From an uncultured Pseudomonadota bacterium (lineage in GTDB: Bacteria > Pseudomonadota > Gammaproteobacteria > Coxiellales > Coxiellaceae): a stretch of 64,000 nucleotides of DNA. Positions 37,941 to 60,768 of this stretch are shown here, in pieces. The stretch lies in the NCBI GenBank assembly GCA_963702315.1, contig CAVPCA010000049.1, positions 9,111 through 73,110 on the forward strand. The letters run 5' to 3'. Each line of letters begins with the position of its first letter. Positions within the stretch are counted from its first letter, which is position 1. The position numbers were made by a program, and so were the translations under genes. The notes under the pieces were generated by a model, which was given only the letters and a program-made list of their open reading frames with translations, made no database searches and was not told the origin of the DNA.

Positions 37941-39173
37941 ATGATTAATAACGGAAATACTGCTTGGTTATTGCTTTCATCAGCGTGGGTGTTATTAATG
38001 ACTCCTGGAATAGCATTTTTTTATTCAGGCCTGGTATCCACGCGCAGCGTCCTGAACACCATCAATATGAGCTTTATTTGTTTAGCAGTTATCCCTTTAG
38101 TATGGGCGGTCATTGGATTTAGTTTAGCCTTTTCCACTGGAAATACTTTTATTGGTAGTCTTCAATGGCTGGGATTAAAAGGCATTGGGATTGCGACATA
38201 CCATGACCCTGTTGGAGTTCCTCAATACGCTTATGTGTTATTTCAAATGATGTTTGCTGTTATAGCGCCTGCTTTGATTTCAGGCGCCATTGTGGGACGC
38301 ATGAAATTTAAAGCCTATGTCATTTTTATTATTTTATGGAGCTTATTCATCTATACGCCTATAGCACATTGGGTATGGGGGCCTAATGGTTGGATTGAAA
38401 AATTAGGCTCTATCGATTTCGCCGGCGGCATGGTGGTACACATTAATGCTGGATTTGCAGCGCTGGTTGCCGCCATCATTTTAGGGCCTCGATTAACTGC
38501 AAATGAAAATATTCACGAAAGCCCGCATAATATTCCATTTGTTATCTTGGGCTGCTCCTTACTGTGGTTTGGCTGGTATGGGTTTAATGCGGGTTCTGCC
38601 TTAGCGGCTAATAGCCTTGCCAGCTTGGCATTTATAACCACTACCTTGTCTGCCTCCGCATCTATTTTTACCTGGACAATATTGTGTTGGTTGAGAGGCC
38701 ATCTGTCTTCTGCCATTGGCAAGGCATGTTCTGCTATCATTGGATTAGTTGCCATTACCCCAGCTGCAGGATATGTAAAACCCATGGGAGCAGTCTTGAT
38801 TGGTTGTGTAGGTGCAGTGATTTGTTATTACATGATGTTATATAGAAGTAAATTACTGAGAAAAATTGATGATACTTTGGATGTTTTTATCTGTCATGGC
38901 ATTGCTGGAGTAGTGGGATCCATTATGACTGGACTCCTCGCCACTAAAGCAGTTAATCCGGATGGCCCAAATGGCCTTTTCTATGGAAATCCGCACTTGC
39001 TCGTGCAGCAATTAATAGCAGTGGTTGCTACGATAGTCATGACTGTTGTTGGAACAGCGTTAATATTATGTCTTTTGAAAATTTTCATGCACATTCGCCC
39101 CAGCCAAGAAGAGGAATCACAAGGTATAGATATCAGCGAACACGGTGAAAATGCCTATGAACATTTGCCCTAA
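37941..39173 (+). CDS. amtB: ammonium transporter
   Basis: 410 aa with about 11 TM segments and the Amt signatures DFAGGMVVHINAG and LDVFICHGIAGVVG. Confidence 0.9.
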   Translation: MINNGNTAWLLLSSAWVLLMTPGIAFFYSGLVSTRSVLNTINMSFICLAVIPLVWAVIGFSLAFSTGNTFIGSLQWLGLKGIGIATYHDPVGVPQYAYVLFQMMFAVIAPALISGAIVGRMKFKAYVIFIILWSLFIYTPIAHWVWGPNGWIEKLGSIDFAGGMVVHINAGFAALVAAIILGPRLTANENIHESPHNIPFVILGCSLLWFGWYGFNAGSALAANSLASLAFITTTLSASASIFTWTILCWLRGHLSSAIGKACSAIIGLVAITPAAGYVKPMGAVLIGCVGAVICYYMMLYRSKLLRKIDDTLDVFICHGIAGVVGSIMTGLLATKAVNPDGPNGLFYGNPHLLVQQLIAVVATIVMTVVGTALILCLLKIFMHIRPSQEEESQGIDISEHGENAYEHLP

Positions 39174-40354
39174 TTATTTTGTGAAATAATCTTCTTGAGC
39201 ATACTCAGACTCTTTAAAATGACCGCGCCCAAAGTGAACAATAGCATTACCCAAGCGAAAGAATACAATGTGCCATTGTAAAATATACTGACTGTAGCAA
39301 TGCTAATAACTCCGCACCAACCCATTAAAAAAGAAAACAAAGCGACGCGAATGCCCATGGGTTGTTGAGTTGATTCTATACTTAATCGATTTAATGGAGC
39401 TAAAGATAGCCCACAGCCCAATTGAAAAACCATCAAGCTGATCACAATATAGAATAATCGGTTAGGCCAAATATAAGCGCAACTCACTGACATTATCATC
39501 CCAGCTAAAGCTACCGGCAGGCCAATTTTTAGAGTGCCCTCCACCCCTCGATAACGGATCAGAAATCTGATAGCCCAAGTTCCAATAATATAACTACTCA
39601 ACAGGAATATTTGGATAATACCGTACCACACGGGGGTTCGATGGAAATCCCGTATTATTAACAAAGGGCCGATCGGCATCCAAGCAATTGCCCCAGCGAA
39701 CAACAAACAGAAAGTCCCCACATTAATTAAAAACTGCTGATTACCAACAACCTGCCAATAATCCCTAAACACTTTACTTAAATTGAATTTTAATCTTTTT
39801 TCCGCAGGTAAACTCTCCGGCATCCAATGCCTTAACATCAAAACCAAAATGGCTCCCCATATGGCGAGGATGATGAACAACCAACGCCAACTGGCAAATA
39901 ATAATAAAACTCCTCCAAATAGGGGCCCCAATGCGGGAGCTAAAACGGCTACTCCACTCATCCAGGCTATGGTTTTCACAGCTTGTTCTGATTCTAAAAG
40001 CTCATGGATACTGGCATAGCCGGCGACAATAACAGCGCAAACCACCATACCTTGAAAAAATCTGGCGATGATCATCGTTGTGATGTCACCCGCCATAGCG
40101 CAAGCAGCGCTAGCAACGACAAATAATATACCGCTATACAAAAGAACTGGCCGTCGCCCAAAACGATCCGAGATGGGGCCTAAAATTAATTGCAAGGAAG
40201 CACTACCAATAAACCAGCCCGTCAAAGTCGTTTGCGCCATAGAAGAAGAAATTTTCAAATCATTCATAATGCTCGGCAAAGCCGGCAAATATAAATCATT
40301 CGACAAGTAAGCAGCCATTTCGTAAAAAACTAACAATAATGGGTAGATAAACAT
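39170..40354 (-). CDS. MFS transporter (Bcr/CflA-like drug efflux)
   Basis: 394 aa with 12 TM segments and the motif GPISDRFGRRPVL between TM2 and TM3. Confidence 0.8.
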   Translation of the reverse strand: MFIYPLLLVFYEMAAYLSNDLYLPALPSIMNDLKISSSMAQTTLTGWFIGSASLQLILGPISDRFGRRPVLLYSGILFVVASAACAMAGDITTMIIARFFQGMVVCAVIVAGYASIHELLESEQAVKTIAWMSGVAVLAPALGPLFGGVLLLFASWRWLFIILAIWGAILVLMLRHWMPESLPAEKRLKFNLSKVFRDYWQVVGNQQFLINVGTFCLLFAGAIAWMPIGPLLIIRDFHRTPVWYGIIQIFLLSSYIIGTWAIRFLIRYRGVEGTLKIGLPVALAGMIMSVSCAYIWPNRLFYIVISLMVFQLGCGLSLAPLNRLSIESTQQPMGIRVALFSFLMGWCGVISIATVSIFYNGTLYSFAWVMLLFTLGAVILKSLSMLKKIISQNN

Positions 40355-40413
40355 TGTATATCGATATGAAAAATTTGATTTTTTAGTATTCCATAGATCG
40401 TTTTGATTATAGA

Positions 40414-42675
40414 CTAAGTTTTTCCAGCACGGATCAGGCCGGCGAGGCCTGCTTCTTCTATGGCTTCTTCCATAAAGCCGCGGATTTCACTGGGTTCATC
40501 CATGATTAAAACTTGTTTGAGTAATGCTTTAGCCTTGGCTAAGGTGAAATTGCGGATCACCCATTTAACCCGCGGCAATGCGCGTGGACTCATGCTTAAC
40601 ACATCAAAATCCATGGCCATCAATAATATAACGGCTAACGGATCTCCCGCTAATTCTCCACAAATGCTAATCGGTCTGCGCGCTTTGTGACAACCCTTGA
40701 CGGCTTGATATAAAGCCCGAAAAACCGCGGGGTGAAAGCTGTGGTACGAACCGGCCACATGCGGATTATTACGATCGACTGCGAGTAAATATTGAATCAA
40801 ATCATTACTGCCCACCGATAAAAAATCGACGCGTTTTGCCATTTCATACGCCTGATAAACAGCAGCCGGCACTTCCACCATTAAACCAATTCTGGGCATT
40901 TTGAGCGCGGTAAAATCACTTTGTAATTCATGAAAAGCCTGTTTGATCAAACACAAAGATTGTTCCACTTCTGAAATCGAAGATATCATCGGCAACATAA
41001 TGGAAAGATTATCTAAACCCACGCTGGCGCTTAGCATGGCGCGCACTTGTTGCAGAAAAATTTCCGGATGCGCCAAACTCACGCGAATGCCACGCCAACC
41101 TAGAAAAGGATTGGATTCTTCCACAGGAAAATACGGTAAATTTTTGTCGCCGCCGATATCCAAAGTGCGCATCACCACTGGTTTTGGTGAAAAGGTTGCG
41201 AGCAATTGATGGTACATCGTGTGTTGTTCTTTTTCGCTGGGAAAACGATCGCGCATCATAAAAGTGAGTTCAGTCCGGTACAGCCCTACTCCCTCAGCCC
41301 CGGCGCTTAAAGAGATTTCGCCATCTAGCGCTAATCCAGTATTCACATGCAATCCAATCGTGTGACCATCTAAAGTTTGGGCGGGCAAATGGCGCAACGC
41401 TTCAAGGTCTGCATCCATTTGTTTTTCTTCAACCATTAATGCTTGAAATTCTTTTTTCACTGCAGGCACCGGTGATATATAAACTTGTCCATTGTAACCA
41501 TCCACAATCAATTCTTTTTTAGATAATTGATCCATTGTAACCCCTGTAATTCCCATCACAGTGGGTAATCCTAATGCGCGGGCCAAAATCGCAACATGAG
41601 AATTCGCCGAGCCCGATCCAGAAACCACACCACTTAAATTCTCGCGTGGAACCTCCATAATACTGGTGGCCGTCACTTCTTCGCTTACCAAAATGGTATG
41701 TTTGGGATATTCCACATGTTCGGGCCTGGCTTGTTGCAAGTGCGAAAGCAATCGCCTGCCTAAATCTCTAAAATCCGCCGCCCGCTCGCGTAAATAAGCA
41801 TCTTCTAAAGATTCAAAATGCACGATGTGCCGTTTAATCACTTTTTTGAGCGCACCTTGCGCCCATTGGCCCGATTGAATTTCTTCAATGACTTCATTCA
41901 TGAGCGTGCGGCTATCCAAAATACGCATGTAAGCGTCAAACAACGCTTGTTCGGCCACTGAAAGCAAGGTTTGGGCCCGTACTTGCAAATGGTGAATTTC
42001 TTCACGCGCGGCCGCCAGTGCTTTTTCAAATAATCGGCATTCTTTTTTAATTTGTGTCGTAGGCCGGTCAGGTACGGCGTCTAAATCAGCAGGTGGATAA
42101 AAAACTTCGGCTTTGCCTATCGCCACCCCGGGCGCTCCAGGAATTCCGACAAGTTCCCGCAGGACTTCCCGCCCTTTGGGTTTGATCACCAATTGCAGAG
42201 CGCCTTTCTCACACGCTTCTGCAAGATCACCCGCCAATTGCACACTCAAGGTAACCATTTGAGCGGTAATTTCATTATCAAACCGGCGACGGCGGCGTTG
42301 GTGAATGGTTAAGACCCCCACCAAATTGCCATTGTCAATCAATGGGATGCCAAGAAAACCTCTATACTCGGGTTGGCCCAACTCCATTTCATCCAGATAA
42401 CTATGAGCGTCTGCCAAATTAACCGGTTCTTCGCGTTCTCCGACTAATCCAATCAACCCTTCGCCCAATTTGGTGCGGAGCTTTCCGACCAGACTGGTTT
42501 TAAATCCAGATGCCGCCAACAGTACATACTCAGCGTGCTTCTCATCTAACAGGTAAATACAACTGGCGTCAAGTGGTAATTCGTCGCAAAGATATTTAAC
42601 AATCGTCGACAATGCTGATGGCAAATCTGCCACCAAATCCATTTCGTGAACCATGCGACTTAAAATAGTGATCAA
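40414..42675 (-). CDS. ptsP: phosphoenolpyruvate-protein phosphotransferase PtsP (EI-Ntr)
   Basis: An N-terminal GAF domain, a phospho-His region GSANSHVAILARALGLP, and a PEP-utilising C-terminal barrel. Confidence 0.9.
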   Translation of the reverse strand: MITILSRMVHEMDLVADLPSALSTIVKYLCDELPLDASCIYLLDEKHAEYVLLAASGFKTSLVGKLRTKLGEGLIGLVGEREEPVNLADAHSYLDEMELGQPEYRGFLGIPLIDNGNLVGVLTIHQRRRRRFDNEITAQMVTLSVQLAGDLAEACEKGALQLVIKPKGREVLRELVGIPGAPGVAIGKAEVFYPPADLDAVPDRPTTQIKKECRLFEKALAAAREEIHHLQVRAQTLLSVAEQALFDAYMRILDSRTLMNEVIEEIQSGQWAQGALKKVIKRHIVHFESLEDAYLRERAADFRDLGRRLLSHLQQARPEHVEYPKHTILVSEEVTATSIMEVPRENLSGVVSGSGSANSHVAILARALGLPTVMGITGVTMDQLSKKELIVDGYNGQVYISPVPAVKKEFQALMVEEKQMDADLEALRHLPAQTLDGHTIGLHVNTGLALDGEISLSAGAEGVGLYRTELTFMMRDRFPSEKEQHTMYHQLLATFSPKPVVMRTLDIGGDKNLPYFPVEESNPFLGWRGIRVSLAHPEIFLQQVRAMLSASVGLDNLSIMLPMISSISEVEQSLCLIKQAFHELQSDFTALKMPRIGLMVEVPAAVYQAYEMAKRVDFLSVGSNDLIQYLLAVDRNNPHVAGSYHSFHPAVFRALYQAVKGCHKARRPISICGELAGDPLAVILLMAMDFDVLSMSPRALPRVKWVIRNFTLAKAKALLKQVLIMDEPSEIRGFMEEAIEEAGLAGLIRAGKT

Positions 42676-42792
42676 TTTTTTTCCTTATTACTGATTGAAT
42701 TATACTAAAAAGATATGCTGCAGGTATTGTTTCATAAATTACAATTTTTTGTCTAGAAGAATTGTTTTTTTTCTCTTGACAATACGCTATAA

Positions 42793-42839
42793 AGTCCATA
42801 TCTTGTGTTTATATCAATTAAAAATCCCAATATATTGGG
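42793..42839. promoter_or_regulatory. two NrdR-box-like palindromes overlapping a sigma70-like promoter
   Basis: Box 2 is CCCAATATATTGGG (42826-39, a perfect palindrome). Box 1 is AGTCCATATCTTGTGT (42793-808, 11 of 16 to the recalled consensus). Their centres are 32 bp apart. TTGACA at 42775-80 is followed 17 nt later by TATCTT. Confidence 0.5.
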
Positions 42840-42873
42840 GTTTTGCTTAGTATTTGAAAAATAAGGAACTTCC

Positions 42874-45696
42874 ATGTCAAACCCGACAGCTTTTGAAAAA
42901 GTTTCATCATTTGAAGAAATTCGTTACTCACCTTTTTCCCATGGTCAACAACCCGGAAGCTTGCACGTCATCCGTCGTAACGGCTCGGTCACTGAATATG
43001 ATGCAAATCGCATTATGGTGGCGATGAAAAAAGCGTTTGTCGCCGTTGAAGGCAATGATGTGGTGCACGCCGAGCGTATTCAAAAATTGGTGGAGCAACT
43101 GACACAGCAAGTCAACGATTGTTTTAAACGCCGTTGGCGGCCGGCGGCACAATTCATATTGAATCCATTCAGGACCAAGTGGAATTGGCGCTAATGCGCG
43201 CGGGAGAACAAAAAGTGGCGCGCGCCTACGTTCTCTATCGTGAAGCACGTCATCAAGAACGTTTAGCACAGAGCGCACAAATTGCGCATTTGGCAGAAAC
43301 TTACAAAGTGACCCATCCCGATGGTTCACAAACACCGTTGGATCCGCAATGGTTGCAACAAATTGTTGAACAAGCTTGTAAAGGCATCGCTGCTGTTACG
43401 CCACAACCCATTTTAAAAGATGTCAAACAAAATCTGTTTGATGGCGTGGCCATTAAAGATATTTATAAAGCTTTGGTTATGTCTGCCCGCACTTTGGTTG
43501 AAACCGAACCCAATTACAGTTACGTCACTGCACATCTCTTGTTGCAGGATATTTACAATGAAACTTTAATTACGCTGGGCCTGGAAGGCGATATGAACCG
43601 CTTGACGCAATTTGATTGGTATAAAAAAGCGTTTCATAAATTTATTGAGCGCGGTATCCAAGAAGAGTTATTGCATGCCAATTTGAAAGATTTTAACTTA
43701 GAGCAACTCGCTGCAGCACTTTGTGTCGAGCGCGATCAAACCTTGGTTATTTAGGCTTACAAACTTTATACGATCGCTACTTTATCCATTCACGTGGTCA
43801 GCGCATTGAATTACCACAAGTGTTTTTTATGAGGATCGCGATGGGTTTAGCGCACTGCGAAGGTAATGCGCGTAATGAAAGAGCGATTGAATTTTATCAT
43901 CTGCTGTCTTCATTCGACATGATGTCTTCCACACCAACGCTATTTAACTCAGGCACTACGCGACCACAGTTGTCGAGCTGCTTTTAAGCACCGTGCCCGA
44001 TCATTTGGAGGGCATCTTTAGCGCGATTAAAGACAACGCTATGTTGTCTAAATTTGCCGGCGGTCTAGGTAATGACTGGACTTACGTGCGCGCGATGGGT
44101 GCTCATATCAAAGGCACCAACGGTAAATCATTGGGTGTAGTGCCGTTCCTTAATGTTGCTGATGCAACGGCCGTGGCTGTTAATCAAGGCGGAAAACGTA
44201 AAGGCGCTCTTTGTTCTTATTTAGAAACTTGGCACATGGATATTGAAGAATTTCTGGAATTACGCAAAAACACGGGTGATGAGCGGCGACGCACACATGA
44301 TATGAACACCGCAAACTGGATTCCAGATCTTTTCATGAAACGTGTACTTGAAAAACAGGATTGGACCTTGTTTTCTCCTGATGAAGTCAGTGATTTACAC
44401 GACTTATTTGGCGAACCCTTTGAAAAAGCCTATGTCGCCTATGAAAAACAAGCCAAATTAGGCAAAATCAGAAGCCGCACGGTGCCTGCAGTGGCGCTGT
44501 GGCGCAAAATGTTGAGTCTTTTGTTTGAAACGGGCCATCCGTGGATCACCTTTAAAGACGCCTGCAATTTGCGTTCCCCGCAACAACATGCGGGTGTGAT
44601 ACACAGTTCCAACTTATGCACAGAAATTACTTTGAACACCAATGCTGAAGAAATTGCGGTTTGTAATTTGGGTAGCATTAACCTGGCTAAACACATGGTG
44701 AATGGCCAATTAGATACTGAAAAACTTAAAAAAACCATTAAAACAGCCATTCGCATGCTGGATAATGTGATCGATATTAACTACTACAGCGTGCCGCAAG
44801 CGAAAAACTCTAATTACAAACACCGTCCTATTGGCTTAGGCATTATGGGTTTCCAAGATACATTGTATGAACAACGCTTACCCTATGCTTGCGAAGCCAC
44901 CGTTGAATTTGCCGATCGCTGCATGGAATACGTCAGTTACTATGCCATCTTAGCTTCTTGTGAATTGGCGCAAGAACGCGGCGTCTATTCTAGTTATGAA
45001 GGCTCGTTGTGGAGCCAAGGGATTTTACCGATAGATTCTATCGCCTTACTGAAAAAGTCACGCGGACAATATCTTGAGCAAAATGAAAGTCGAACGCTGG
45101 ATTGGGATGCATTGCGTGAAGTGGTGAAAAAATTTGGTATGCGTAATTCCAATGTCATGGCGATTGCGCCCACCGCCACCATTGCCAATATTTGCAATGT
45201 CACTCAATCTATCGAACCGACTTATCAAAATTTATTTGTGAAATCGAACTTATCGGGTGAATTCACCGTAATTAATCCCTATTTGGTGCAAGACCTAAAA
45301 GCCTTGGGATTATGGGACACCGCCATGGTGCATGATTTGAAGTACTACAACGGCAGCTTAGCTAAAATCAAGCGCATACCAGCGGATATTAAAGCTTTAT
45401 ATGAAACTGCTTTTGAAATCCACCCTGAGTGGTTAGTGAAGTCTGCATCCCGCCGGCAAAAGTGGATTGATCAATCACAATCACTCAACTTATACATGGC
45501 GGAGCCTTCCGGAAAGAAACTGGATATTTTATATCGCAAAGCTTGGCTCTTGGGATTAAAAACGACTTACTATCTTCGCAGTATGGGTGCGACGGGCACT
45601 GAAAAAGCCACCATTACCGATTATGCTTTAAATGCGGTGGATACAATGCCCAAAGCGTGTTCCATCGACGACCCAGAATGCGAAGCGTGTCAATAA
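42874..45696 (+). CDS. nrdA: ribonucleotide reductase class Ia alpha subunit, broken into four ORFs by three single-base frame changes
   Basis: ATP-cone [36 protein letters not shown], the catalytic NLCTEI and a C-terminal CEAC. Breaks lie at ~43125-43140, ~43741-43755 and the T4 run at 43982-85. Confidence 0.9.
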
Positions 45697-45707
45697 AGGA
45701 GATCACT

Positions 45708-46889
45708 ATGTCTGAGAATTTCAATTTAAATTGGGATGATTCTTACCACAAAGAATCCGTAAAAGCGGCCCGTTTAGCAAAGAATTTTATTGCTGAAGAT
45801 GAAGACGATGGCGGCGATGGTGGCAGTACAGGCCTTGAAGAATTAGAAATGGGTGCAGCACGCATTCGCGTGGATGATAAACGCATCATCAATTGCCGCG
45901 CGGACCTCAATCAATTAGTGCCCTTCAAATACAAATGGGCGTGGGAAAAATATCTGGCGGGTTGCGCCAACCATTGGATGCCGAATGAAATTAATATGTC
46001 AGCGGATATCGCCCTATGGAAAGATCCCAATGGCTTAACCGAAGACGAAAGAACTATCATCAAACGCAGTCTCGGGTTTTTCTCCACAGCTGATTCTTTG
46101 GTGGCCAATAATTTGGTGTTAGCGGTTTACCGTCACATTACCAATCCCGAATGCCGCCAATATTTATTGCGTCAGGCGTTTGAAGAAGCATTACACACGC
46201 ATGCTTACCAACATGTGATTGAAAGTTTAAGTTTAGATGAAGCTGAAGTTTTCAATATGTACCGTGAATTACCGTCTGTAGCCAAGAAAGCCGCCTGGGC
46301 GATTCCTTACACCCGCAGTCTAGCAGATCGCCAATTCCGCACGGGAACTCCGGAAAATGATCAGCGTTTATTGCGTGATTTAATTGCTTTTTATGTGGTG
46401 TTTGAATCTATTTTCTTTTATGTGGGCTTTACGCAAATTTTAGCGATGGGCCGCCGCGGGAAAATGACCGGCACTTCTGAACAATTTCAATATATTTTAC
46501 GCGATGAATCGATGCATGCGAATTTCGGTATTGATGTGATTAATCAAATCAAAATTGAAAACCCGCATTTGTGGACTAAAGAATTCCAAACTGAAGTGAT
46601 TAACATGATCAAAGACGGTGTTAATTTAGAATACGAATACGCCAAAGACACCATGCCTCGTGGTATTTTAGGCTTAAACGCCAATTTATTTAAAGATTAT
46701 TTAGAATATATTGCCAATCGCCGTTTCGTGCAGATTGGTTTACCTGAACAATATCCCGGTGTAACGAACCCTTTCCCGTGGATGAGTGAAATGATGGACC
46801 TCAAAAAAGAGAAAAACTTTTTCGAAACCCGCGTTATCGAATACCAAGCCGGCGGTACATTAAGCTGGGATGAAGAAGATTCCAACTAG
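45708..46889 (+). CDS. nrdB: ribonucleotide reductase beta subunit
   Basis: The start at MSENFNLNW is preceded by AAGGAG. The iron ligand/radical motif is [11 protein letters not shown], with the radical Tyr present. Confidence 0.9.
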
Positions 46890-46995
46890 AGCATCAAGAC
46901 AATAACACTATATTTCCCGAAAAAAACTCATATGGCAGACAAAATTTATGGTATAATTTAGAGTTTTTAGAAAGTAGTTTTTTTGGAGAGATTTG

Positions 46996-47265
46996 ATGCC
47001 TTTGTATGAGTATAAATGTTCAGCCTGTAGTCAGGCTTGTGAATATTTACAAAAATTTACGGATCCAGAAATAAAATTGTGCCCAAATTGTGGAAAAGAA
47101 GCGTTGAAAAAACAGGTTTCAGCGACCCAATTCCAATTGAAAGGGACAGGCTGGTATGTCACTGACTTCAAAAACAGCAATAAACCTGAGCAAAAGAGTA
47201 AAGAAACGCCCGATACTAAAACAACAGAAAAAACCACCCCGAAAACCGAGGAAAAAAGTTCATGA
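46996..47265 (+). CDS. FmdB-family zinc-ribbon protein
   Basis: MPLYEYKCSACSQ...CPNCG with a Lys/Thr/Glu-rich tail. Confidence 0.8.
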   Translation: MPLYEYKCSACSQACEYLQKFTDPEIKLCPNCGKEALKKQVSATQFQLKGTGWYVTDFKNSNKPEQKSKETPDTKTTEKTTPKTEEKSS

Positions 47266-47555
47266 GCTTAACCACCCATATTACCAAATCGATACGCCGT
47301 TATTTAATTGCCGGTGTTTTGGTCTGGTTACCCATTGTGATCACTTATTTTATTGTCCACTTTATCGTGCACTTATTAGATGGGACCATGGAGTTGCTAC
47401 CACAAAAGTATCATCCCGCACAGTTTATCGGTTATGAAATCCCCGGCGCAGGCGTGCTGCTGACCGTGCTTATTTTACTGATGACGGGCTTGCTGGTCAC
47501 CAACTTTATCGGCCACAAATTGCTATCGATTTGGGAAAAATTATTGTCTGTTACG
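47262..47555 (+). CDS. DUF502-family membrane protein, N-terminal ~95 codons only (cut by junction)
   Basis: There is an ATGA overlap with the upstream gene and two TM segments. Family-like ...NFIGHKLLSIWEKLL is followed by unrelated GC-rich sequence. Confidence 0.6.
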
Positions 47556-47559
47556 GTTG

Positions 47560-48188
47560 AGGCTTGCGAGTGAATAGGTTTCAGGATCTTTCCGGGTCAG
47601 AACGCAGGGACCCTGCTTCCTGCCGCTAACCTGATCCGGAGTTCCATGGGCCAGTTGCTCAATCCACGCCGCCATCGATTCCTTCGGCTCGCCCATCGCT
47701 GTATTCGACACGTCCTCCCACGCTTCCCACGTTTCCAGCCGCTCCGCATATGCGGCGCGGGCCCTGGGCAGAATAGAAGTGCCCAGCCCCAATCGCAGCG
47801 GCGGATTTTCTGCGTCCACAAGCTTCAGGATGGCTTCTGCCGTCGCCTCCGGATCGCCGCGTTCAACATTTGCCAGATGCGTCAGGAACTGCTTCCGAAT
47901 TCCGCGTATGGTTCCAGCGCATCCGCGATCTGTGAGGATTTTCCGAAGTCGGTTGCGTAGGCTCCGGGTTCAACAAGCGTCACCTTCAACCCGAACGCCC
48001 TCACCTCCTGCGCGAGGGATTCGTGGAGCGCTTCGACAGCCCATTTTGTAGCGCAATAGAAGCCGATGAGTGGCAATGCCGTTACCCCAAGTCCGCTCGA
48101 GACACCGAGAATGTGACCGCTCCCTTGTTTCCGCAACAAAGGCAGAGCCGCTGGTAGCACTCGGACCATGCCGAAGTAGTTCAACCAA
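47560..48188 (-). pseudogene. fragment of a classical short-chain dehydrogenase/reductase, lacking the Rossmann N-terminus and frameshifted
   Basis: NYFGMVRVLPAALPLLRKQGSGHILGVSS...YCATKWAVEAL...VTLVEPGAYATDF has the YxxxK active site. There is a frame change near 47895-47905, then ..RKQFLTHLANVERGDPEATAEAILKLVDAENPPLRLGLG. The segment is visibly GC-rich. Confidence 0.7.
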
Positions 48189-49051
48189 GTATCCAAAAAC
48201 TCATCAGAGTTGGGCGCAACGAAGTTGTGGTAGTCCTGCGAGTCGACAAGGAGAAGGGTGAGCACCAGAACTAGATTAATCAACGAAACAAATACTGAAC
48301 GGGATCGCAGGGTACATTGATCTTTCAAAACGAAGAGTGTCGCCTGAAGATATCATCAAATGCGAGGAGAGATATAATAAGAGCAAGATGGTTCATTCAA
48401 TTATGCGACATGTGGCAGAAAAGACTCAACATCCTATTGAAGATCTTTATGAGCGCATTGGCTGGCCACTGAACAAGAAGTACGGACATGCGGTAGATGC
48501 TTTCAAGCTCTCAATAACGTAGGTACAGACTTTGATCCATTTCGGAAATTTGCTAATCATCTTTTAGCAATCCCGACGTCTGGCAAGAAGTTTCATTTCC
48601 CAACGATGTCGTTGCCGAAGAACTGAAATCCTACATCGGAAAGCGTCTTACACCCCAGCCTACAAAGGTCCGAGCAGATGTTGAGGTTACATGTTTTGGA
48701 TATGAAGGAATCGATGCTGTCAAAACAGCGCTACGAACAGCTGAAGCTCGAAATACCCCGGATAACCAGGTGAAGGTTAAACTTGTCTCGCCACCACTAT
48801 ATGTCCTTACAAGCACATGCCTAGAGAAAGCTGTTGGAATTCAAACACTAGAAGCGGCGATCGTTGACATCCGGTCCAACATCGAGGGGTCTGGTGGTAA
48901 TTGCATCGTAAAGATGGAGCCAAAAGCGGTCACAGAGAATGATGATGCCGAGCTGCAGGCATTAATGGAGAAACGTGAGAGAGAAAACGCAGAGGTCAGC
49001 GGAGATGAGAGCATGAGTGAAAGCGACGAAAATGCGGTCGAGGTGATGTAA
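48189..49051 (+). CDS. SUI2: translation initiation factor eIF2 alpha subunit, 5-prime third missing; exons 48189-48257, 48311-48518, 48568-49051
   Basis: SIQKLIRVGRNEVVVVLRVDKEKG / YIDLSKRRVSPEDIIKCEERYNKSK... / NPDVWQEV...KVKLVSPPLYVLTS. Introns are GTGAGC..ACTGAAC..CAG and GTAGGT..TGCTAAT..TAG. The S1 domain start and Ser51 region are absent. Confidence 0.85.
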
Positions 49052-49347
49052 AGGCGTTCTGGGCTATATCAAAAGCATTGTGATCAGAATTTGCATTGCG
49101 GGCGCATAGAAGGGCTATAGAGCCAAATGCTGCAGCGAACGACCTGTGTCTTTTTAAGAACAGTCATAAGTTATGAAAAGTAGTCAAAACGTTAAAAAAT
49201 GTCGTCAGTCTCTTCATGAAATGGATTTCTTGACAAGGCTGCTCGCGAGGCTGAGCTGATGGAAAGTAAGCGAGATTTTTGAGGATGAGCACCAAATCGA
49301 AAGCTAACGACCTCCCGTGTTGGTACCAGAGTCTGAACCCCACCACC

Positions 49348-49986
49348 ATGTCCTCGAACCGCATGTTTTCCTTCTTCAAACGAAATACAACATGGGGTAA
49401 ATCTTTCCATGACTTCAATTACCGATTGTTCATTTTCATGACATGGGTACCCGCCGTGATCTTCTTCAATGGAAATGTGGGAGAGTTGACTCGGATCAAC
49501 GGCCCATCTATGTACCCGTATTTGAACACCAGCTATAACGAAGATCTTAAGAAAGATCTGTGCTGGGTCAGCAAATGGAATCCGACTCGAAATCTGCAGA
49601 GAGGGATGCTAGTCTCTTTTCAGTTAGTTATATGGAGGAGAACTTTCGTCACAGTACTGACAATAAGTAATAGAAGTCCAAATAACCCCGAAAAACTTGC
49701 TATAAAGCGAGTCATTGCTCTTGAGGGAGATGTGGTATACACTAGAGCTCCTTGTCCTCTACCAACGGTGCAAGTCCCTATCAGCCATGTCTGGGTGGAA
49801 GGTGATAATAGGGACAAATCGTTGGATAGCAACAGTTATGGACCTCTCCCAATGAGCCTAATCCAAGGAAAGCTTACCTACGTTTTGTGGCCGTGGAAGA
49901 GCTCGGGGCCGATACATTGGAGACAATTCAAGGGCAAGACGAGGGTGATTGCAGGCCGCAGGCAGGATGCACCGAATTGGGATTGA
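49348..49986 (+). CDS. IMP2: mitochondrial inner membrane protease subunit (Imp2-like signal peptidase); exons 49348-49622, 49674-49986
   Basis: GPSMYP (catalytic Ser), KRVIALEGD (Lys) and GDNRDKSLDSNSYGP. The 51-nt intron is GTTAGT..TACTGAC..TAG. Confidence 0.7.
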   Translation: MSSNRMFSFFKRNTTWGKSFHDFNYRLFIFMTWVPAVIFFNGNVGELTRINGPSMYPYLNTSYNEDLKKDLCWVSKWNPTRNLQRGMLVSFQLVIWRRTFVTVLTISNRSPNNPEKLAIKRVIALEGDVVYTRAPCPLPTVQVPISHVWVEGDNRDKSLDSNSYGPLPMSLIQGKLTYVLWPWKSSGPIHWRQFKGKTRVIAGRRQDAPNWD

Positions 49987-50455: not shown

Positions 50456-50940
50456 GAGGATACTGTGACGGTAAACGTGGCTTGATATTGGAGTCAGAAT
50501 GGGATAAAAAGCAATTTCAGGCGCAGAAATTGGCATATGACAGAAAATATTTGGCCGTATTGGAAGAGACAAATCTAAATACAGGAAGCGAAAACCGATC
50601 CCTTTTAAACGTATCAAGAGCCTCTTCAATGTCCAGAGTGGGCGGGTACAATGAAACGAAGCAGACGATTCTTACACGTTTCAAAAGCTCTTTAGTGTCT
50701 AAAGAGAGCTGGTACAATGGAATGGAAACCATAGCTACCAGCCGAGAAATCTCAATTTTGTGTCCCAGCAAGGGCTTGTTATCCAATGCTGAGAATGATT
50801 ATTATTGCAGAGTTTCCTATCTCCGTAACAGTTCATAGTAGACCCACGTGGTATCCATGCTCCACGGGATCCCTTCCCAGGATGCCGACGTCCTTGTATT
50901 TATCATCATCGATTCATTTCTCTTTCCTATTCTATTCTCC

Positions 50941-51807
50941 TTAGATCAAATCGCTTCCGCCATTCTCAGAGTCAAAAAGCCTCTCAATAAAAGCCTTGGT
51001 AGGAGCCTCAGCGGACCTTTTCTCTGCATTTGACTCCATTTTCGAGTTCCAACACAACTGTCCTCCCCAAGCGTCACGCAAATCTTGCAAGTGCCCATGA
51101 ACCCCTTTTACAATAGAGTTTTGATGGATTGCTTCTATTGTGGGCAAAGCTTTATCAGTGACCACAAGAATCTTCTGCACGTATGAAAGTGGGTGTGCCT
51201 GTCGCAAACTTAATAGAACCCTCTCCGCCATAATAGTCGGGGCCTGGCGGTTTGGAAAGGTATATGGAGGCGGAAGCACGCCACCCATGTGCTCAATCGT
51301 GTCTTTATCGAGCAACAACTCCAAATTTCGAAGTGAGCTGTACTTTTCTTGCTTAATCAAGAGCTGTATGGCTTTATCAAAGATTTCAATGTTGTTTCCC
51401 AAACCTGGGACAAGTCTCAGGCGAATGGAAGCAATCCGTTGACTTGCAAGCCGGCCCATTGATTTAAAAGTTTGCCGGAGGTTGTGAGGTGAATAGAAAT
51501 AGAAAACGTTGCTCCTCCAGAAAAGCTCATTTGTCTCCTCGTACATTTTGCGGCATGTTCTTGGAAGTGAGAGGGAGATGGTTGGCCGCAATGTTTCAGA
51601 CCCGCAAAGTTGACTTTTCCTCTTGAGGGGCCTTCCATCGTCAACCAGGAGATAGAAGAAGGGTCCAGACTGCGAACAGCTGCGTGGGTAGCCGAGGTGA
51701 TATGCATCACAACGAGACAGGATCCTGATTGTGCCAGTTGGAGATACAAGGCAGTCGCGGAAGATCTGGTTTCTAATCTCCGCCGGAAGATCCAAAAGCG
51801 AGATCAT
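50941..51807 (-). CDS. hypothetical fungal protein (N-terminus resembles 2EXR/F-box-like LLDLPAEIRNQIF)
   Basis: A 288-aa ORF with no obvious intron. The domain call is tentative. Confidence 0.4.
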   Translation of the reverse strand: MISLLDLPAEIRNQIFRDCLVSPTGTIRILSRCDAYHLGYPRSCSQSGPFFYLLVDDGRPLKRKSQLCGSETLRPTISLSLPRTCRKMYEETNELFWRSNVFYFYSPHNLRQTFKSMGRLASQRIASIRLRLVPGLGNNIEIFDKAIQLLIKQEKYSSLRNLELLLDKDTIEHMGGVLPPPYTFPNRQAPTIMAERVLLSLRQAHPLSYVQKILVVTDKALPTIEAIHQNSIVKGVHGHLQDLRDAWGGQLCWNSKMESNAEKRSAEAPTKAFIERLFDSENGGSDLI

Positions 51808-52457
51808 AGTGGTTGTACTGTTAATGATATTGTTGTACTGAGAAAGATGAGAATTTTGGAAGCCAGAAGATGCTCAAGATCGAGTGCTTGCATGCGCTGA
51901 GCTAGAACTTGTTAGCTTGGGCGGTAGAGCTATAGTAACAGGGCAACGAACTTTGACCAAGCAGTACCGAATTTGTTCAAACCTAACCCTCATATGGTGA
52001 AATGAGAAGATCTGGTATCGCAAGCAATTGATGCTCAGGCCATGCGATGCAACCCCGTTCAGGAATGTAGGAAATTGTGGTTGAAAAAGAGTCCCAATGG
52101 GTTAATGAGATTTTCCAAGCTTAAATATTCAACAACCAAAAAATGTGGATTATGTGTCCGCTCCAAAATGCACGAAGAGAAATTTCCTCTGGTCCTCAGA
52201 GTAGGATTCAGCAATGCAACTTGCAAAGGTGAAGACAAACTTAAACACCCTCTGCTCGCCGATGGACAATCACTTCACTGCGTCATCAAATCTCCACTAG
52301 GATCCAGAATTCGCCTCGTTATCCAGACATTCTTAAAATCCAGCCATCCACGATGCGGAGATCCTCCTCCCGAATTTGATCCTCAGAGCTGTAACTTGCA
52401 ACCTGTCTGAATTTTCACCTTTCGAGACACGCCAACGCCAAAGCTCTGTATATTGAG

Positions 52458-52673
52458 TCACCAGCGGGTGTCAGAATTCGTGACGCAATACCCGGTTTCA
52501 ATGTACTATAACTCATGGAAAATTCGTAAAGCGACGAGCCACTGCTTTTTAGATTGTTCCTCAGATCAGGGAACAATTATAAAAGCAAAATGGCAGTTGA
52601 GCTCTAAATGTCCCTCGAGCTATAGTACATTGAAAGCCAGCATTCCGTCACGAATTCTGACAACCACTGGTGA
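52458..52673. mobile_element. 216-bp fungal MITE, copy B
   Basis: TCACCAGCGGGTGTCAGAATTCGTGACGCAATACCCGGTTTCAATGTACTATAAC ... inverse end CCACTGGTGA. Confidence 0.8.
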
Positions 52674-53434
52674 GTCCCTCTCTCGAGCGATTCGTGATCA
52701 GCTATGCTTAGAGACATAATTTGAAAGTAAGCAATTAATGATGCTGTGTTTGCGACTTGATTCTTCCAAGGATGAGGCAAATTGCTAGGTGACGCGCTGT
52801 GCACTCACTCTCCGTGAGTCGATTTGAAATTTGTCGTCGGTGAAGCAAACTCCTAAGTGATGGCTCAACTTAAGCGCGACGTTGTTTCAGCTATCAATAG
52901 AAATAGAAATCGTCGTTTAGACGACGGGTATTGAGCGTCAAAGGATCTCACGCGCAGCCAGCCATAGGATCTCCACAGTGAATCTCTAGCTGCGGCCACA
53001 CGATTGAGCGCCATCGCGTCAAGCGACCCATCCGCCTCCAGCCATGCTGTAACTATATTCAGGGGGCGGACGCGGTAGAGCCAATCGCCTGTCGACCTGA
53101 CATCATCTTGCGTTTCGAATCAAGAAACCCCTGCCAATACTTCCTCCAATTCATCCAACAAATCCAACAAATCAACCTCCGCAAACCTTCAGCGGCTGGT
53201 ACCCTGTTTCTTGCAAACGACCATATCTTGGCCAAGCTGTGAACCATATGAGGGGCCCATATAACCTTATCCCTTCACTCATTCGTTTCTTGCTTTGCAG
53301 GTTCCCCTAAATCATCGATATAATACCGGCCTCGGCCCTGTCGATTATACATTCATTCTCACCGACTCCTGCAAGCCCAGGTCGAAACCCTTTCTATGTC
53401 TCGATAATTCCAAACACCCAGTGACGACCCCAAG

Positions 53435-56400
53435 ATGTCTTCAACGACGGCAACCGCCTCGACGACAAGCTCGTCGGGCGCGACGACGCACCACAGCAAC
53501 CTTCGGGCAAGGACAAGCGACCCAGGGCATCAGTCTGGTGGCTTTCCTCACTGCCTTGGCGACTTCGTTGGTTATTTTCGGCGTGCAGATGCTTGCATTT
53601 ATTCTCCTGAAGAATAAGCTAGCACGAATCTTGTGAGTCTGCATATTGAGTGACTGCCAGGACAAATTAAATATCCCCTCGAGCCCTGCTAACGATAACC
53701 AGCAAACCCAAGACATATCTAGTCCCTGAACGAGAACGAACAGAACCCCCGCCGAGAAGCCCTTGGGGCTGGCTGTTTGCCATCTTCCGATTCAGAGACC
53801 GCGAAATCATCAATAAATGCGGACTGGACGCTTACTTTTTCCTGCGATACCTCCAAACCCTCCTCGTAATATTCATACCTCTGGCGTTGGTCATACTTCC
53901 AATTTTGGTCCCCCTCAACTACATTGGTGGCAGAGGTGGATCTTATGCTCTAGAATTTGGAAATTCTACGGATTCCACCCACGCCAATGTCACAGGGCTG
54001 GACACTGTCGCATGGGGTAATGTACGACCAACACAAACAAAAAGATATTGGGCGCACTTAGTACTTGGTATTGTCGTTGTTGTTTGGGTGTGCGGTGTAT
54101 TTTTTGCGGAGCTGCGGGTATACATTAAAGTGCGACAAGACTACTTAACATCAGCAGAACACCGATTGAGGGCATCAGCAACGACCGTACTCGTCAGCGC
54201 CATTCCTCGAAAATGGCTTACAAGAGAAGCTCTTGCTGGACTATACGACGTGTTTCCGGGAGGGATTCGGAACATTTGGATCAATCGAAATTATGACGAG
54301 CTACTTGACAAGATCCACTCGCGAGACAAAATATTTCAGCAACTCGAGGCTGCAGAGACCGAGCTTATTAGAAAAGCAAAGAAGGCTCAGAGAAAGCAGG
54401 CTGAGAAGGATGCCCAAATACAAGCAAAAAAGTCCTCGCTCAAGCCAAAAGCTATGACGAAAGAGGAGAAGGAGCAAAAGATAAAAATGGACAACGCAGA
54501 AGCGGAGAGACTTGCCCGTAGCGGAGGAGTAACGGCTGGTGACCCTCACCAGGTGCCCCATACAGTGGATGACGCTATAAATGAAGAAGAAGAAAGGTCT
54601 AGGTATGACCGAACCGAGCAGAAAGGTACTTTCAAGGTTCCTGTCTTAGGTGGCGGTCTGGCTGCTGTTGGACAAGGCTTGGATGTTATGGGCCAGGGGC
54701 TCGGGAAGGGGCTTGATGCTGCTGGAAAAGCTGGTGTTACGGTTATTGGAGGTGCTCGAAAAGTTGGTAGAAATCTCGATGATCAACTTGAGACTACCAA
54801 TGGTTTCATTGCGATGGACGACGGTTCGCCAATAGACGGCGATTCGTATGACGTGTATGGACGATATCGTGGCAATTCTCAGACTACCGCCCAAGACCCT
54901 TATGGTGCTGGTTCCGAAAACAGGGCAGAGGGAATCAGGGATGCGGAAGAGCAGCTACAGACGGTTGAATCAACAACTCCACCGGAAACACGAAATGATC
55001 AAAGCAACAGGCTACCGGGAAATACAACGCGAAAGGCGACATTTCATCACGGAGTCGACGGTGCGGAAGATATTCCACCAAACAACGGCTGGTGGAAGTT
55101 CTGGAAGGCTCCCGCAGGAGGGTTCGCATCGCCACTACCGACTGGATACGAAGAAGGCGATGAATTTCCATTAACCCACAATGACGGTGCAAGGGTGTCT
55201 ATACCAAAGCATAGTCGAGATGGTAGGGAGGAGAAGAAGGGATTGTGGAGCAAAATCAAAGCCGCTGTCCCATTCCTCGACCAGGAGGAAGTCCAGCCTC
55301 AGCAGTATCCAGTTGCGTACAACCCTGATTATAAAGAAGATGCACATGGAGCGGTGTGGGAGAGGTATCTTAAAGCAAGCGATCGACCGACACACCGCTT
55401 GGCCAAGTTCAGCTGGACTCCTGGTTGGTTGCCAGGTCTACCACTCATCAACGAGAAGGTCGACACAATATACTGGTGCCGTGGAGAACTCGCCCGTCTC
55501 AATCTCCAGATTGAGATAGACCAGAAAGAACCAGAACGATTTCCGCTGATGAATTCTGCTTTTATCCAATTCAATCACCAGGTCGCTGCTCACATGGCAT
55601 GCCAAGCTGTCAGTCATCATGTGCCTATGCATATGGCCCCTAGAACTGTGGAAATCTCGCCAAACGATGTAGTTTGGGACAACATGTCGATTAAATGGTG
55701 GGAGTCTTGGCTCAGAACTTTCTTCGTAACAGGTGTTGTTGCTGGAATGGTTATCCTATGGTCGTTTCCTGTGGCCTGGACAGCTTCCCTGGCACAAATT
55801 TCCTATTTGGCCGCGAAATATCCCTGGCTCCATTGGCTCAACCGCATTCCCGCGAGGGTCCTTCAGGCAATTGCAGGTGTCCTGCCAGCTCTCGTCCTGT
55901 CAATTTTACTAGCGCTTGTTCCCATGATCTTAAACTACCTTGCATTTATTCAAGGCGCGCAAACGGGCATGGAAAAGCAGAGATCTGTTCAGAATTACTA
56001 TTTCGCATTCCTATTTGTCCAGGTCTTCTTGATCGTCTCCATCTCTGGAAGTGCGTTAGCTACCCTCGGATCAGCAACTCAAATCACTGCAATCCCCAAC
56101 ACCCTAGCCACTCAACTTCCGAAAGCGGCGAACTACTTCTTTTCTTATATGATCCTACAGGCTTTGTCGACTAGTTCCGGGACCTTGCTGCAAATTTTTA
56201 CTCTGATCTTGTGGTACGTGCTGCCGAAGCTCTTCGACAATACTGCTCGACAAAAGTGGAAGCGAAACACCACTCTACCATCGGTGACTTGGGGTACATT
56301 CTTTCCTGTTTACACCAACTTCGCCTGCATTGCCCTCATCTACAGCGTTGTATCCCCCATCATCGCGATATTTGCAATTATAACATTCACTCTGCTCTGG

Positions 56401-57300
56401 ATTGCAAACAGATATAACATGCTCTACGTGTCCAGATTCAAACTGGATACTGGGGGCCTGCTATATCCACGAGCTATCAATCAGACCTTCACCGGCCTCT
56501 ATGTCATGGAGCTTTGCATGGTTGGCTTGTTCTTCCTTGTTCGTGACGAGAACAATAATGCTGCGTGTATACCACAAGCCATTATCATGATCGTTGTGGG
56601 CTTCCTCACCGTCCTGTATCAAGTGCTGTTGAACATGTCATTCGGTCCTCTCTTCCGTCACCTTCCAATCACATTCGAAGATGAAGCTGTTCTCCGTGAC
56701 GAAATTTTCGAGAGGGCACAGGCACGCCGTCTTGGCTTAGTCGACGACGAAGACGAAGGTTTAGATTTCCCACAACATGATGGCGGCATAGAGATGTCTA
56801 AGCTCAACACAAAAAGCAAGTTCGCAAAGTTTAACCCGGTCAATGTTGTCCAAGAAGCCGGCTCCTGGGCAGCGAAGTCAGGTCGGAAGATCAGACAAAA
56901 CACCTTTGGTCGTGGTTCCGGCAATGATGCTGACCAAGGTCTTCCGCATCTTCCTCATCTGCACCGTAAACGCAAGCACCGTGATATCGAAGCTCAGAAG
57001 AAGATCGCGGATGCTCTGTACGGTGGCTACAACGACGAAATTGAGGATTTGACGCCTGATGAGAGAGATATCCTTGTTAAACATGCCTTTCAGCACTACG
57101 CGCTGAGAGCTCGTCGTCCCACTGTATGGATTCCAAGAGATGATATCGGGGTTAGTGATGACGAGGTGAGGAGAACAAGAGAGTTTGCTGGTAATAACAT
57201 CTGGATCAGCAACGTGGGTGCGGCATTAGATGGGAAGTCGAGAGTTGTTTACGGAAGAAATCCGCCAGATTTCTCAGAGATTGATTTGATCAACCTGTGA
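53435..57300 (+). CDS. CSC1: CSC1/OSCA/TMEM63-type calcium-permeable stress-gated cation channel (RSN1_TM, cytosolic and 7TM domains); exon junction 53632/53703; 5-prime end uncertain
   Basis: ISLVAFLTALATSLVIFGVQ...KNKLARI | KPKTYLVPERERTEPPP..GLDAYFFLRYL.., then a 1,137-aa open frame. The 70-nt intron is GTGAGT..TGCTAAC..CAG. The only nearby ATG (53435) is one frame off the conserved exon-1 frame. Confidence 0.85.
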
Positions 57301-57540
57301 TCTAAGTTTTCAGTCATTTGTGCAGACAGAGGAAGAGAGAGATGGGGGAGAGCGCACGGTGGAGGTGGAAACATGTAAGGTTCATTTGATTTAGCGGCAT
57401 TACGGCGTTGAACACCCATAGCATAGTGTTGCACAATGGTGCATTCACCATCTCGTTTTTAGAGCCTTTGATACCAAGAAATGAAGTCACGATTCGCATT
57501 GCTTATTCTCGTAGTCCAAGGCTCATTGACACCCTTTACA

Positions 57541-57756
57541 TCACCAGTGGTTGTCAGAATTTGTGAGGCAATACTGGTTCTCAATGTACTATAGCTCAAG
57601 GGACATTTAGAGCCTAACTGCCATTATTGCTTTTTAAATGTTCCCGGGCCTGAGGAACAATATGAAGAGTAGTGACTCTTCGCTTTACGAAAGTTCCATA
57701 AGTTATAGTACATTGGAACGCAGCTTTGTGTCACGAATTCTGACAACCACTAGTGC
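57541..57756. mobile_element. 216-bp fungal MITE, copy C (internal part inverted relative to B)
   Basis: TCACCAGTGGTTGTCAGAATTTGTGAGGCAATACTGG...GTCACGAATTCTGACAACCACTAGTG. Confidence 0.8.
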
Positions 57757-57845
57757 ATGCATGAGTAAACAGGACTTCATCTCCTTACTAAACTTTGCGA
57801 GTCTAATCGTAAACAGGAGGCTGAATCATTACATGATATACCAAT

Positions 57846-59106
57846 TCAGGTATCCTTCAACCTCCCAAACTGCGGCTCAACCGACACTTTTCCTTCCTCA
57901 TCTAGAACTTTCCCCCTATCCCACTCTCTGCCTTCTCCCTTCTTCGCCCACCGCACATCTTCCTCCCGCTTTTCGCCACCGTTCTCCCATCGCTTGACCT
58001 CATCTTCTGTGAAACCAGCAGCTCTGAGACGATCAGCACCTATCTCCCTGAATTTCTTACGAGCTCTCATTGCCTCTAAAGCCTGATCCCATGGGTCGTC
58101 CTCATCGGAATCCAGCCGGACATCAGTACTTGGGTCGTAGTTTGCCGAAAATCTAGCGTCTATACCGGATGCTTGAGAAATAGTGCCGCGACCTTTGGTT
58201 CGTACTTTGGGAATAGGTGGAGGGCGTGGGCCAATGATATCGTCTAAAGGATCTGAGTAGTAGCCATCTTTTGCATTTGCATTTGATTTGCTTCTGCTTC
58301 TGCCTCCTTTAAATTCTTCTCTCGGTCTTGTTCCTTCATTCCGGAATCCACTTCCCCCCTGCTAGATCGATGTGATTTTCCTCGTGCTTTATCAGCATCT
58401 GGGGACCTCGACCGCTTCCTTCTCGGTGATCTCTCGCGATGTCTGCTTTCTTTGCTTCGGTGTTCTCTGGGGGACCCTGAACGTGATCTGCGCCGTCTTC
58501 TTCGATCCTCGCCTTCCTTGCCGCGCTCTCTAGAAGCGCTTCTATGTCTGCGATGATGTCCTCGCTGGCCATTTGACCTTCTACTCTCGTCTCTAGACTC
58601 CCTAATATCCCGGGTCCTATGAGATGCCGCCCTCGCCCTCTCCTCAGGTTCTTCATCTTCACTGGAAGTATTCACACGCCTCCCACCCTCGCCAACCTTG
58701 GCCCGCTTCCTCGGTCTGCCCCCTAAGATCGCTGCAATATCCCCAAGCTGACGTCTCCTTATATCTCCTCCACCAACCCGACTTGCTTTCTCCTCACGAC
58801 GTTCATTAGATCCTAAACTCTCCAGGCGGGCACGGGATTCCGCAGTTTCTTTGGCGCGTAGTGCTGCATTGTGACTGTCGGTATTCTTGATGATGTTTTG
58901 TAGGAAACGAGTATTTGGCTTAGGCTTATTCGAGGGCATTCTAATAAGTTTAGAATGGCATTCCGCATATTCTGGGTGAGTAGGACGTACTTGGATTGCT
59001 TGAAAGCGTCAAGACCCATCGAGGAGTACTTGATGGCACTGTCGTTTGCGTCCTTTGCCAGGAGTTCCGCTACATAATCGTCGGTCAGGATCTCGTCATT
59101 TCCCAT
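57846..59106 (-). CDS. conserved-looking fungal Arg/Ser/Glu-rich protein of unknown function; intron 58941-58990; one frame break
   Basis: MGNDEILTDDYVAELLAKDANDSAIKYSSMGLDAFKQSK | MPSNKPKPNTRFLQNIIKNTDSHNAALRAKE..RS-rich..| DGYYSDPLDDIIGPRPPPIPK...RLRAAGFTEDEVKRWENGG. The frames join if the C6 run at 58354-59 changes by one base. Confidence 0.55.
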
Positions 59107-59518
59107 GATTTCTGATTTCCGGCTTGTGGCCAACGAAGGAACTGCTGGCAAGAGAGGCCGAGGTTTGAGAGCAGGTTTTCTGAATAACCGCTGCTTGACG
59201 AAACGATGGACCATGAGTAATAATTTCGATGGCTTGATTGGGAAGGCGGTGAAATACATCCCACCAAACTGCCGAATTGCGCAAGTAAACAAACGCCTAC
59301 CACACCTGACCGGTCAATCACTCCAGAAAGTACATTAAGCACAACCGCGATTCTGATCTTCTTTCCAGCTCGAGAACATACACGTAGTTTGTCCAGATTT
59401 TTCTGAAATTCCGCCTGGAAGACGCCTAAATTCGCGCCCAACGCGGTTTCCATCCAAACCTAATTAAGCACCCGGAGAGTGCAATATCAGTTTCAGCAAC
59501 ACCAGATTTATAGTCAGC

Positions 59519-60410: not shown

Positions 60411-60768
60411 TTTGGAATGTTTTGAGGAATATTGGGGAATACCAATCGAAAGGGTTGGCGTTCTAGGCGTACGTGGGATTTGTCATTCTTGTTGTGGTTA
60501 TAACATATGGTATATGTAATCCTCGACAGGAATTATCAAGATGTTGACGAGCGAAGATACGAAGTCTGAATCGATGTCTGCAAGTCGGCCATGAAAATTG
60601 TACATCGTATTGCCAGAAAATCGTCTTTTGAAAATGCTATATCAACATCTACGGAGCACCTATGGGCATGGGCATCCTTGACAGCAAATATGTAGTATTT
60701 ATATGAATCCAGGCCGCTAGCTGTTCTATACTGTGTATGTGTATGTGATATTAGAGGTTAAATTTGCC

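Follow-up and report, generated by a model that had tools for sequence, protein, structure and literature searches.

Chimeric MAG contigs, and contamination more generally, can mimic gene transfer between kingdoms. In the tardigrade genome controversy of 2015-2016, contamination and misassembly were reportedly mistaken for inter-kingdom horizontal gene transfer, and tools such as GUNC now screen MAGs for chimerism. A source of such sequences lies in library preparation: ligation-based nanopore libraries yield chimeric reads, which make up at least 1.7% of reads (PMC5600009), and chimeric reads from libraries of this type are also documented elsewhere (PMC13141652).

The locus described here belongs to this familiar class and is no biological feature. 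It lies in a stretch of 64,000 nucleotides (hereafter the window) in which a bacterial DUF502 gene breaks off in the middle. The break is almost certainly an artefact, namely a chimeric contig in the deposited MAG in which DNA of three unrelated soil organisms stands end to end. The three parts are the chromosome of a Coxiellaceae-type bacterium, a 0.6-kb scrap of a GC-rich soil bacterium with part of an SDR gene, and DNA of a Hyaloscypha-like fungus of the Helotiales. The features of the window on which the argument rests, or which are mentioned beside it, are as follows.

1..47549: segment A, Coxiellaceae/Legionellales-type gammaproteobacterial chromosome, about 40% GC, with dense intron-free genes
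33103-34623: IS66-family transposase, after a low-GC island
36029-37276: PP2C-type phosphatase ORF, beyond the IS66-family transposase
46996..47265, plus strand: FmdB-type zinc-ribbon gene, 89 aa (Pfam Zn_ribbon_8, E=2.9e-13), immediately upstream of DUF502
47262..47549, plus strand: 5' part of the DUF502 gene, 96 of 221 codons, cut in frame after ...WEKLLS
47549..47550: junction 1, at which segment A gives way bluntly to foreign DNA, placed by the end of identity with an independent contig (L081)
47550..47629: stretch of 80 nt with 55% GC that separates junction 1 from the SDR homology
47630..48182, minus strand: segment B, SDR codons ~107-290 of 291; the N-terminal Rossmann part, the last codon and the stop are absent
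48183..48186: junction 2, four bases (aacc) without a match in the SDR or the fungal relatives
48187..49051, plus strand: 3' four fifths of a fungal eIF2-alpha gene, starting mid-exon at codon ~58 (SIQKLIRVG...)
49279..49986, plus strand: mitochondrial inner-membrane protease, IMP1-like (Peptidase_S26; Pfam E=1.6e-13)
50583..50584: breakpoint at which the equivalent of position 1953 (plus strand) of a fungal contig (L090) switches to its position 430 (minus strand)
50584..64000: segment C, chromosome segment of a Helotiales fungus (Hyaloscypha-like)
50941-51807, minus strand: DUF7730/F-box-like gene (Pfam) in segment C, 288-aa ORF
53905-57300, plus strand: RSN1/PHM7 channel (Pfam) in segment C, 1,131-aa ORF

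The bacterial segment and the break in the DUF502 gene

Segment A carries housekeeping genes (NAD-GDH, Obg, PtsP, NrdAB and tRNA-Pro), and bacterial DNA extends to the left edge of the window. Genes are dense to the left of 47.55 kb and long ORFs are few to its right. The best match of NrdB, at 89% aa identity, is an uncultured Coxiellaceae MAG, followed by Coxiella, Coxiellaceae and Legionella. Logan contigs of run ERR10755948 are 100% identical to the window at 44226-47549 and 37610-39262, and outside the frameshifts considered below the window is identical to the independent contigs of this run. Two of them, L081 and L088, come from the same Coxiellaceae strain as the window, to which they are 100% identical along 3.3 kb and 1.65 kb, respectively. 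The run and the MAG probably go back to one sample or study; a literature search for it returned no paper naming the run.

Segment A also contains a low-GC island at 26000-32700 (31-37% GC), with large ORFs of 377, 179 and 1,014 aa that have no Pfam match. Together with the IS66-family transposase and the PP2C-type phosphatase ORF nearby, it may be an effector island as in Legionellales. A tRNA-Pro(CGG) gene at 23988-24063 overlaps by 10 nt with the 3' end of a minus-strand ORF for an AAA_14/DUF4143 ATPase (24054-25232); ATPases of this type are frequent cargo of mobile or defence islands beside tRNA genes.

The DUF502 ORF starts with MSLTT and reads NFIGHKLLSIWEKLLS up to 47549, from where seven foreign codons (VTVEACE) lead to a stop at 47571-47573. 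The Pfam profile of the family (PF04367) gives 21.2 bits, below the cutoff of 23.8 bits, since the ORF covers just profile positions 1-31 of 107; a full domain covers ~107 profile positions in a protein of ~200-220 aa. Judged from its sequence, the ORF is a truncated fragment of a true DUF502 member. The order of a zinc-ribbon gene followed by DUF502 is also found in Coxiellaceae relatives (seen in L001, L002 and L081). In particular, L081 (Logan contig ERR10755948_495883, 3,820 bp), which was reached by exact look-up of the 89-aa zinc-ribbon protein, matches the window from 44226 to 47549 at 100% over 3,324 bp with zero gaps and mismatches, and diverges from 47550. Past this point it reads ...WEKLLS/RIPLIRNIHS... 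into an intact DUF502 protein of 221 aa (P0250) and then into the next gene, and the DUF502 homologues of L001 and L002 go on as ...LLSRIPLIRSI. Since the identity with L081 ends at 47549, the breakpoint falls exactly between 47549 and 47550, after codon 96 of 221. A GAATTC site stands beside the DUF502 break in L081, and a role of EcoRI was considered and rejected, the break being 2 nt off the cut position.

The other end of the gene is also on record. A 43-aa ORF with an identical DUF502 C-terminus (…ISIEEALRMVISIGVIIPQQMTYSPASIPSTPAKEIV) lies on a separate contig of 19,411 bp in NCBI and ENA, and thus the bacterial chromosome appears to continue elsewhere in public data. We infer that this contig belongs to the same assembly and is the true continuation of the chromosome. 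The original prediction had described AT-rich, intron-free bacterial DNA up to ~47,555 and a DUF502 gene that opens in the manner of its family and then switches abruptly, with ~95 codons present where family members have about 200 aa. These observations hold, with some refinement: the dense-gene DNA of ~40% GC ends at 47549, and the DUF502 codons of the ORF match residues 1-96 in the intact protein exactly.

A soil-bacterial fragment followed by fungal DNA

The foreign piece that begins at 47550 ends at 48182; it is 633 bp long and has ~60% GC. Within it, segment B has 59.7% GC (47630-48182), against 41.5% in the last 2 kb left of the break, and its minus strand codes for an SDR from which all but the C-terminal two thirds is missing (adh_short in Pfam with E=2.9e-17, over profile positions 107-190 of 195). 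SDR codons 1-106 are lacking, and the TGxxxGxG Rossmann motif and the catalytic region that characterize the family (PF00106) do not stand together in one ORF. The encoded protein is 97% identical over 184 aa to residues 107-290 of a 291-aa SDR (P0001), and the DNA is 95-97% identical over 554 nt, with one gap, to three contigs in which the SDR gene is intact (L082-L084). Relative to L084, segment B shows 12 synonymous differences and 5 non-synonymous ones, a pattern which indicates that it is a genuine allele of a related bacterium and not noise. Its frame is broken by a 1-nt deletion, GG to G at 47897/47898, by which CCGGAATTC becomes CCGAATTC. A role of EcoRI was rejected for this frameshift as well, GAATTC being present merely where GG became G. 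Close relatives of this SDR come by the thousand from soil metagenomes; one relative, 87% identical, is named Terracidiphilus sp. In addition, the neighbouring genes in L082 and L083 (TetR, NmrA-like and MacB/FtsX genes) fit a soil bacterium. The source, a GC-rich soil bacterium, may tentatively be placed as Acidobacteriaceae-like.

The 80 nt between the DUF502 break and the SDR homology showed in alignments no significant similarity to the sequences 3' of the three nearest SDR loci, and no match in exact-pattern scans of JGI metagenome contigs, including a search with a 1-nt indel at the expected stop. All SDR relatives end in ...TPDQ, then A or E, then the stop; the frame in the window has no stop there and reads on, and just past the expected stop lies a palindrome, GCAGGGTCCCTGC. 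Either the SDR gene of this strain has a 3' flank of its own here, or the 80 nt are a further scrap.

At the other end of segment B, the SDR alignment stops at 48182 and all ten fungal relatives start aligning at 48187; SDR and eIF2-alpha are both cut mid-ORF at junction 2. The fungal sequence enters eIF2-alpha at ...SIQKLIRVGRNE..., and the gene has introns at about 48258-48310 and 48519-48567 (boundaries read from the sequence). The part present in the window lacks the first 57 codons, so that neither the start codon nor the Ser51 region is there, nor most of the S1 domain. Its product is 94% identical in amino acids to eIF2-alpha of Rhynchosporium agropyri, and from 48187 onward the window is 98% identical in nucleotides to ten soil-metagenome contigs in ENA (L089-L098). 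In all ten relatives eIF2-alpha is intact, with NTE1 upstream, and the order of eIF2-alpha followed by the S26 protease gene is conserved in Rhynchosporium and in the same ten contigs.

Further to the right, the window departs from its fungal relatives at 50583/50584. Two of these, L090 and L099, agree with each other at 99.7% identity and run through the equivalent of this position without interruption, and the window does not. The breakpoint is either a real inversion of ~12 kb in this strain or a further chimeric join. Beyond it, from 50584 to 62070, the window and L099, an independent contig, are colinear at 94-97% nt identity, and the cluster of the window's RSN1 protein (at least 90% identity) includes PMD25686.1 of Hyaloscypha hepaticicola. 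A dispersed repeat of ~215 bp occurs three times in the fungal part (50238-50455, 52459-52673 and 57540-57756). More copies, in both orientations, are found in L089 and L090, and the copy at 52459-52673 is missing from L099; the repeat may be a MITE-like element.

Because the SDR is soil-bacterial, the junction at 47.55 kb is a bacterium-to-bacterium junction, and the switch between kingdoms lies at about 48.19 kb. The original prediction was right in calling the DNA to the right of 47.55 kb foreign, in its higher GC content and in the SDR C-terminus on the opposite strand. It was mistaken about the kingdom of the GC-rich DNA, which is bacterial rather than eukaryotic and only 633 bp long. Its picture of a single junction also fails, given the second junction at 48182-48187 into fungal DNA and the breakpoint at 50583/50584. 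Separate comparison with relatives, which it had proposed for each side, finds Coxiellaceae-type DNA on the left, a soil-bacterial SDR in the middle and Helotiales DNA on the right.

Origin of the joins

The joins carry few marks. A repeat search around the junctions found only chance-level matches of 12-14 nt in terms of direct or inverted repeats or microhomology, and no recombinase ORF lies within 47-49 kb. The window's only tRNA is at 23988, 23.5 kb from the junction, and the nearest IS is that of the IS66-family transposase, 13 kb off. Thus the repeat search and the positions of tRNA and transposase agree with the original prediction that no IS end, att site or repeat marks the break. Insertion of a mobile element or island was considered and rejected, as the borders have no terminal repeats, target-site duplication, tRNA/att site or recombinase. 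More generally, none of the features tested as signs of a mobile-element insertion or of a genuine integration was found. Only the 80 nt and the 4 nt at the junctions cannot be assigned. Adapter sequences of ONT, PacBio and Illumina scored no higher near the two junctions (within ~100 nt) than in random windows.

The errors in the window are of one kind. All five frameshifts found are 1-nt homopolymer indels; nrdA has three of them, ispB and the SDR fragment one each. The gene of ribonucleotide reductase alpha, nrdA (42952-45696), is in four frame segments, owing to T-run deletions at ~43134, ~43740 and ~43985, and these breaks look like long-read consensus error rather than the decay of a pseudogene. 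An ispB-like polyprenyl diphosphate synthase gene (22931-23978), normally an essential gene, is split into two ORFs by an apparent extra G at ~23558 (ttggca to ttgggca).

Homopolymer indels, together with blunt joins that share no k-mer, point to a long-read assembly bridged by chimeric reads. The source would be an error-prone long-read assembly of a soil metagenome, in which one or a few chimeric reads, physical or computational in origin, may have been taken by the assembler as a bridge from the end of a bacterial contig to a fungal one. Ligation of short fragments to each other in library preparation can give rise to such reads, and so can the reading of two molecules as a single one. The bridge would be the ~3 kb at 47550-50583, that is, the 80 nt, the 553-nt SDR piece, the 4 nt and ~2.4 kb with eIF2-alpha and the S26 gene. 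This specific long-read route is a reasonably probable one. Whatever the route, two observations support the reading of the break as an artefact. The flanks come from different genomes (Coxiellaceae, soil-bacterial SDR and Helotiales), and each interrupted locus is intact in independent data that are identical or nearly so (L081 for DUF502, L082-L084 for the SDR and L089-L098 for eIF2-alpha). The remnants of DUF502, SDR and eIF2-alpha were truncated by the join and not by evolution, and nothing is functional here.

The artefact could have arisen by another route, for example a misjoin in a short-read graph, scaffolding, gap-closing or contig extension, an MDA chimera, or manual or bin-level merging. 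Short-read and amplified libraries give rise to chimeric contigs as well (PMC9984789), and the ~215-bp fungal repeats could confuse an assembly graph near 50.2-50.6 kb. However, a de Bruijn misjoin requires a shared k-mer, and neither 47549/47550 nor 48182-48187 offers any shared sequence that a k-mer graph could collapse, which argues against this kind of misjoin and would favour chimeric template molecules. Scaffolders, for their part, usually leave runs of N, of which there are zero here, and indels confined to homopolymers suit long-read consensus error better than Illumina error. Hence, these other routes are improbable. Still less credit is due to the idea that the window merely concatenates separate records, such as contigs of one bin or file, with the junctions as record boundaries. 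The breaks are indeed blunt, segment B is as short as a small contig, and the DUF502 fragment ends on a codon boundary. Nevertheless, a junction-spanning ORF of 103 aa (P0251; …WEKLLSVTVEACE), which reads 24 nt across the junction, is recorded as a called gene on a public contig of 80,857 bp, and the products expected from concatenation, a 96-aa DUF502 stub and SDR partials, are not on record. By exact-sequence look-ups, six bacterial proteins of the window are found on this one NCBI/ENA contig, and so are three fungal ORFs, those of the DUF7730/F-box-like protein (288 aa), RSN1 (1,131 aa) and the last eIF2-alpha exon. The presence of P0251, bacterial ORFs and fungal ORFs on a single contig places the chimera in the deposited assembly and not in the making of the window. 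Thus, where the original prediction had offered an assembly or a concatenation chimera, the former stands and the latter falls.

One may argue that the join is real, that is, that at least ~47.5 kb of Coxiellaceae DNA and a scrap of a second bacterium were integrated into a Helotiales chromosome, or fungal DNA into the bacterium. The junction does exist in a deposited public contig, and blunt joins with few filler bases resemble the products of non-homologous end joining. Yet the bacterial part matches independent contigs with an intact DUF502 gene at 100% identity and is undecayed apart from the homopolymer indels, the rest of the DUF502 gene lies on another contig, and three different lineages follow one another within 640 bp. 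Moreover, a recipient genome should stand on both sides of an insert, and the window passes from bacterium to fungus just once. The eIF2-alpha gene (SUI2) is essential and single-copy in the haploid ascomycetes, and the join removes its first 57 codons, which speaks against a viable recipient. Inter-kingdom integration is therefore very unlikely on this evidence. A real join would call for a Hyaloscypha-like soil fungus (or a nucleus or cell in the sample) with a recent insert of at least 47 kb of chromosome from an intracellular member of the Coxiellaceae, end-joined with an acidobacterial scrap at a duplicated or dispensable eIF2-alpha locus, and such a history is equally hard to credit. The original prediction had ranked a chimera above a real integration, and the meeting of three lineages and the intact state of the interrupted genes elsewhere favour that ranking.

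Comparison with known cases

The biological importance of the locus is nil, and its practical importance, as a warning about this MAG, is modest. The Coxiellaceae chromosome in the public contig of 80,857 bp has at least 16 kb of fungal DNA fused to it, along with a scrap from another bacterium. Unless it is corrected, the contig could give rise to false claims of gene transfer between bacteria and fungi. It could also inflate the pangenome of a Coxiellaceae lineage with eukaryotic-like genes, which matters since the search for effectors of eukaryotic type is active in this group. Truncated proteins would enter the databases in this way, and the 103-aa DUF502 stub already represents its 90% cluster. 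The contig needs to be split at 47,549, and probably at 50,583 as well, with removal of its fungal and SDR parts from the bin. For tools that look for chimerism in long-read MAGs, it also offers a clean example.

With the integration of a mobile element or island, the locus shares an interrupted gene (DUF502) and an abrupt change of composition, but here the other half of DUF502 never resumes downstream in the window. The likeness to chimeric contigs in long-read MAGs is closer. It extends to the blunt mid-gene joins, the short foreign piece sandwiched between long segments, the interrupted genes that are intact in independent data, and the homopolymer indels. The joins here are free of adapters, which fits ligation of fragments before adapter addition without proving it. 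Compared with contamination mistaken for transfer, the sole evidence for transfer is likewise the adjacency of bacterial and eukaryotic DNA on one contig, and the bacterial part looks like a normal, undecayed chromosome. The case differs in that the assembly is a prokaryotic MAG with the eukaryotic part as passenger, and in that the fragment of a third organism at the join makes the artefact unusually visible.
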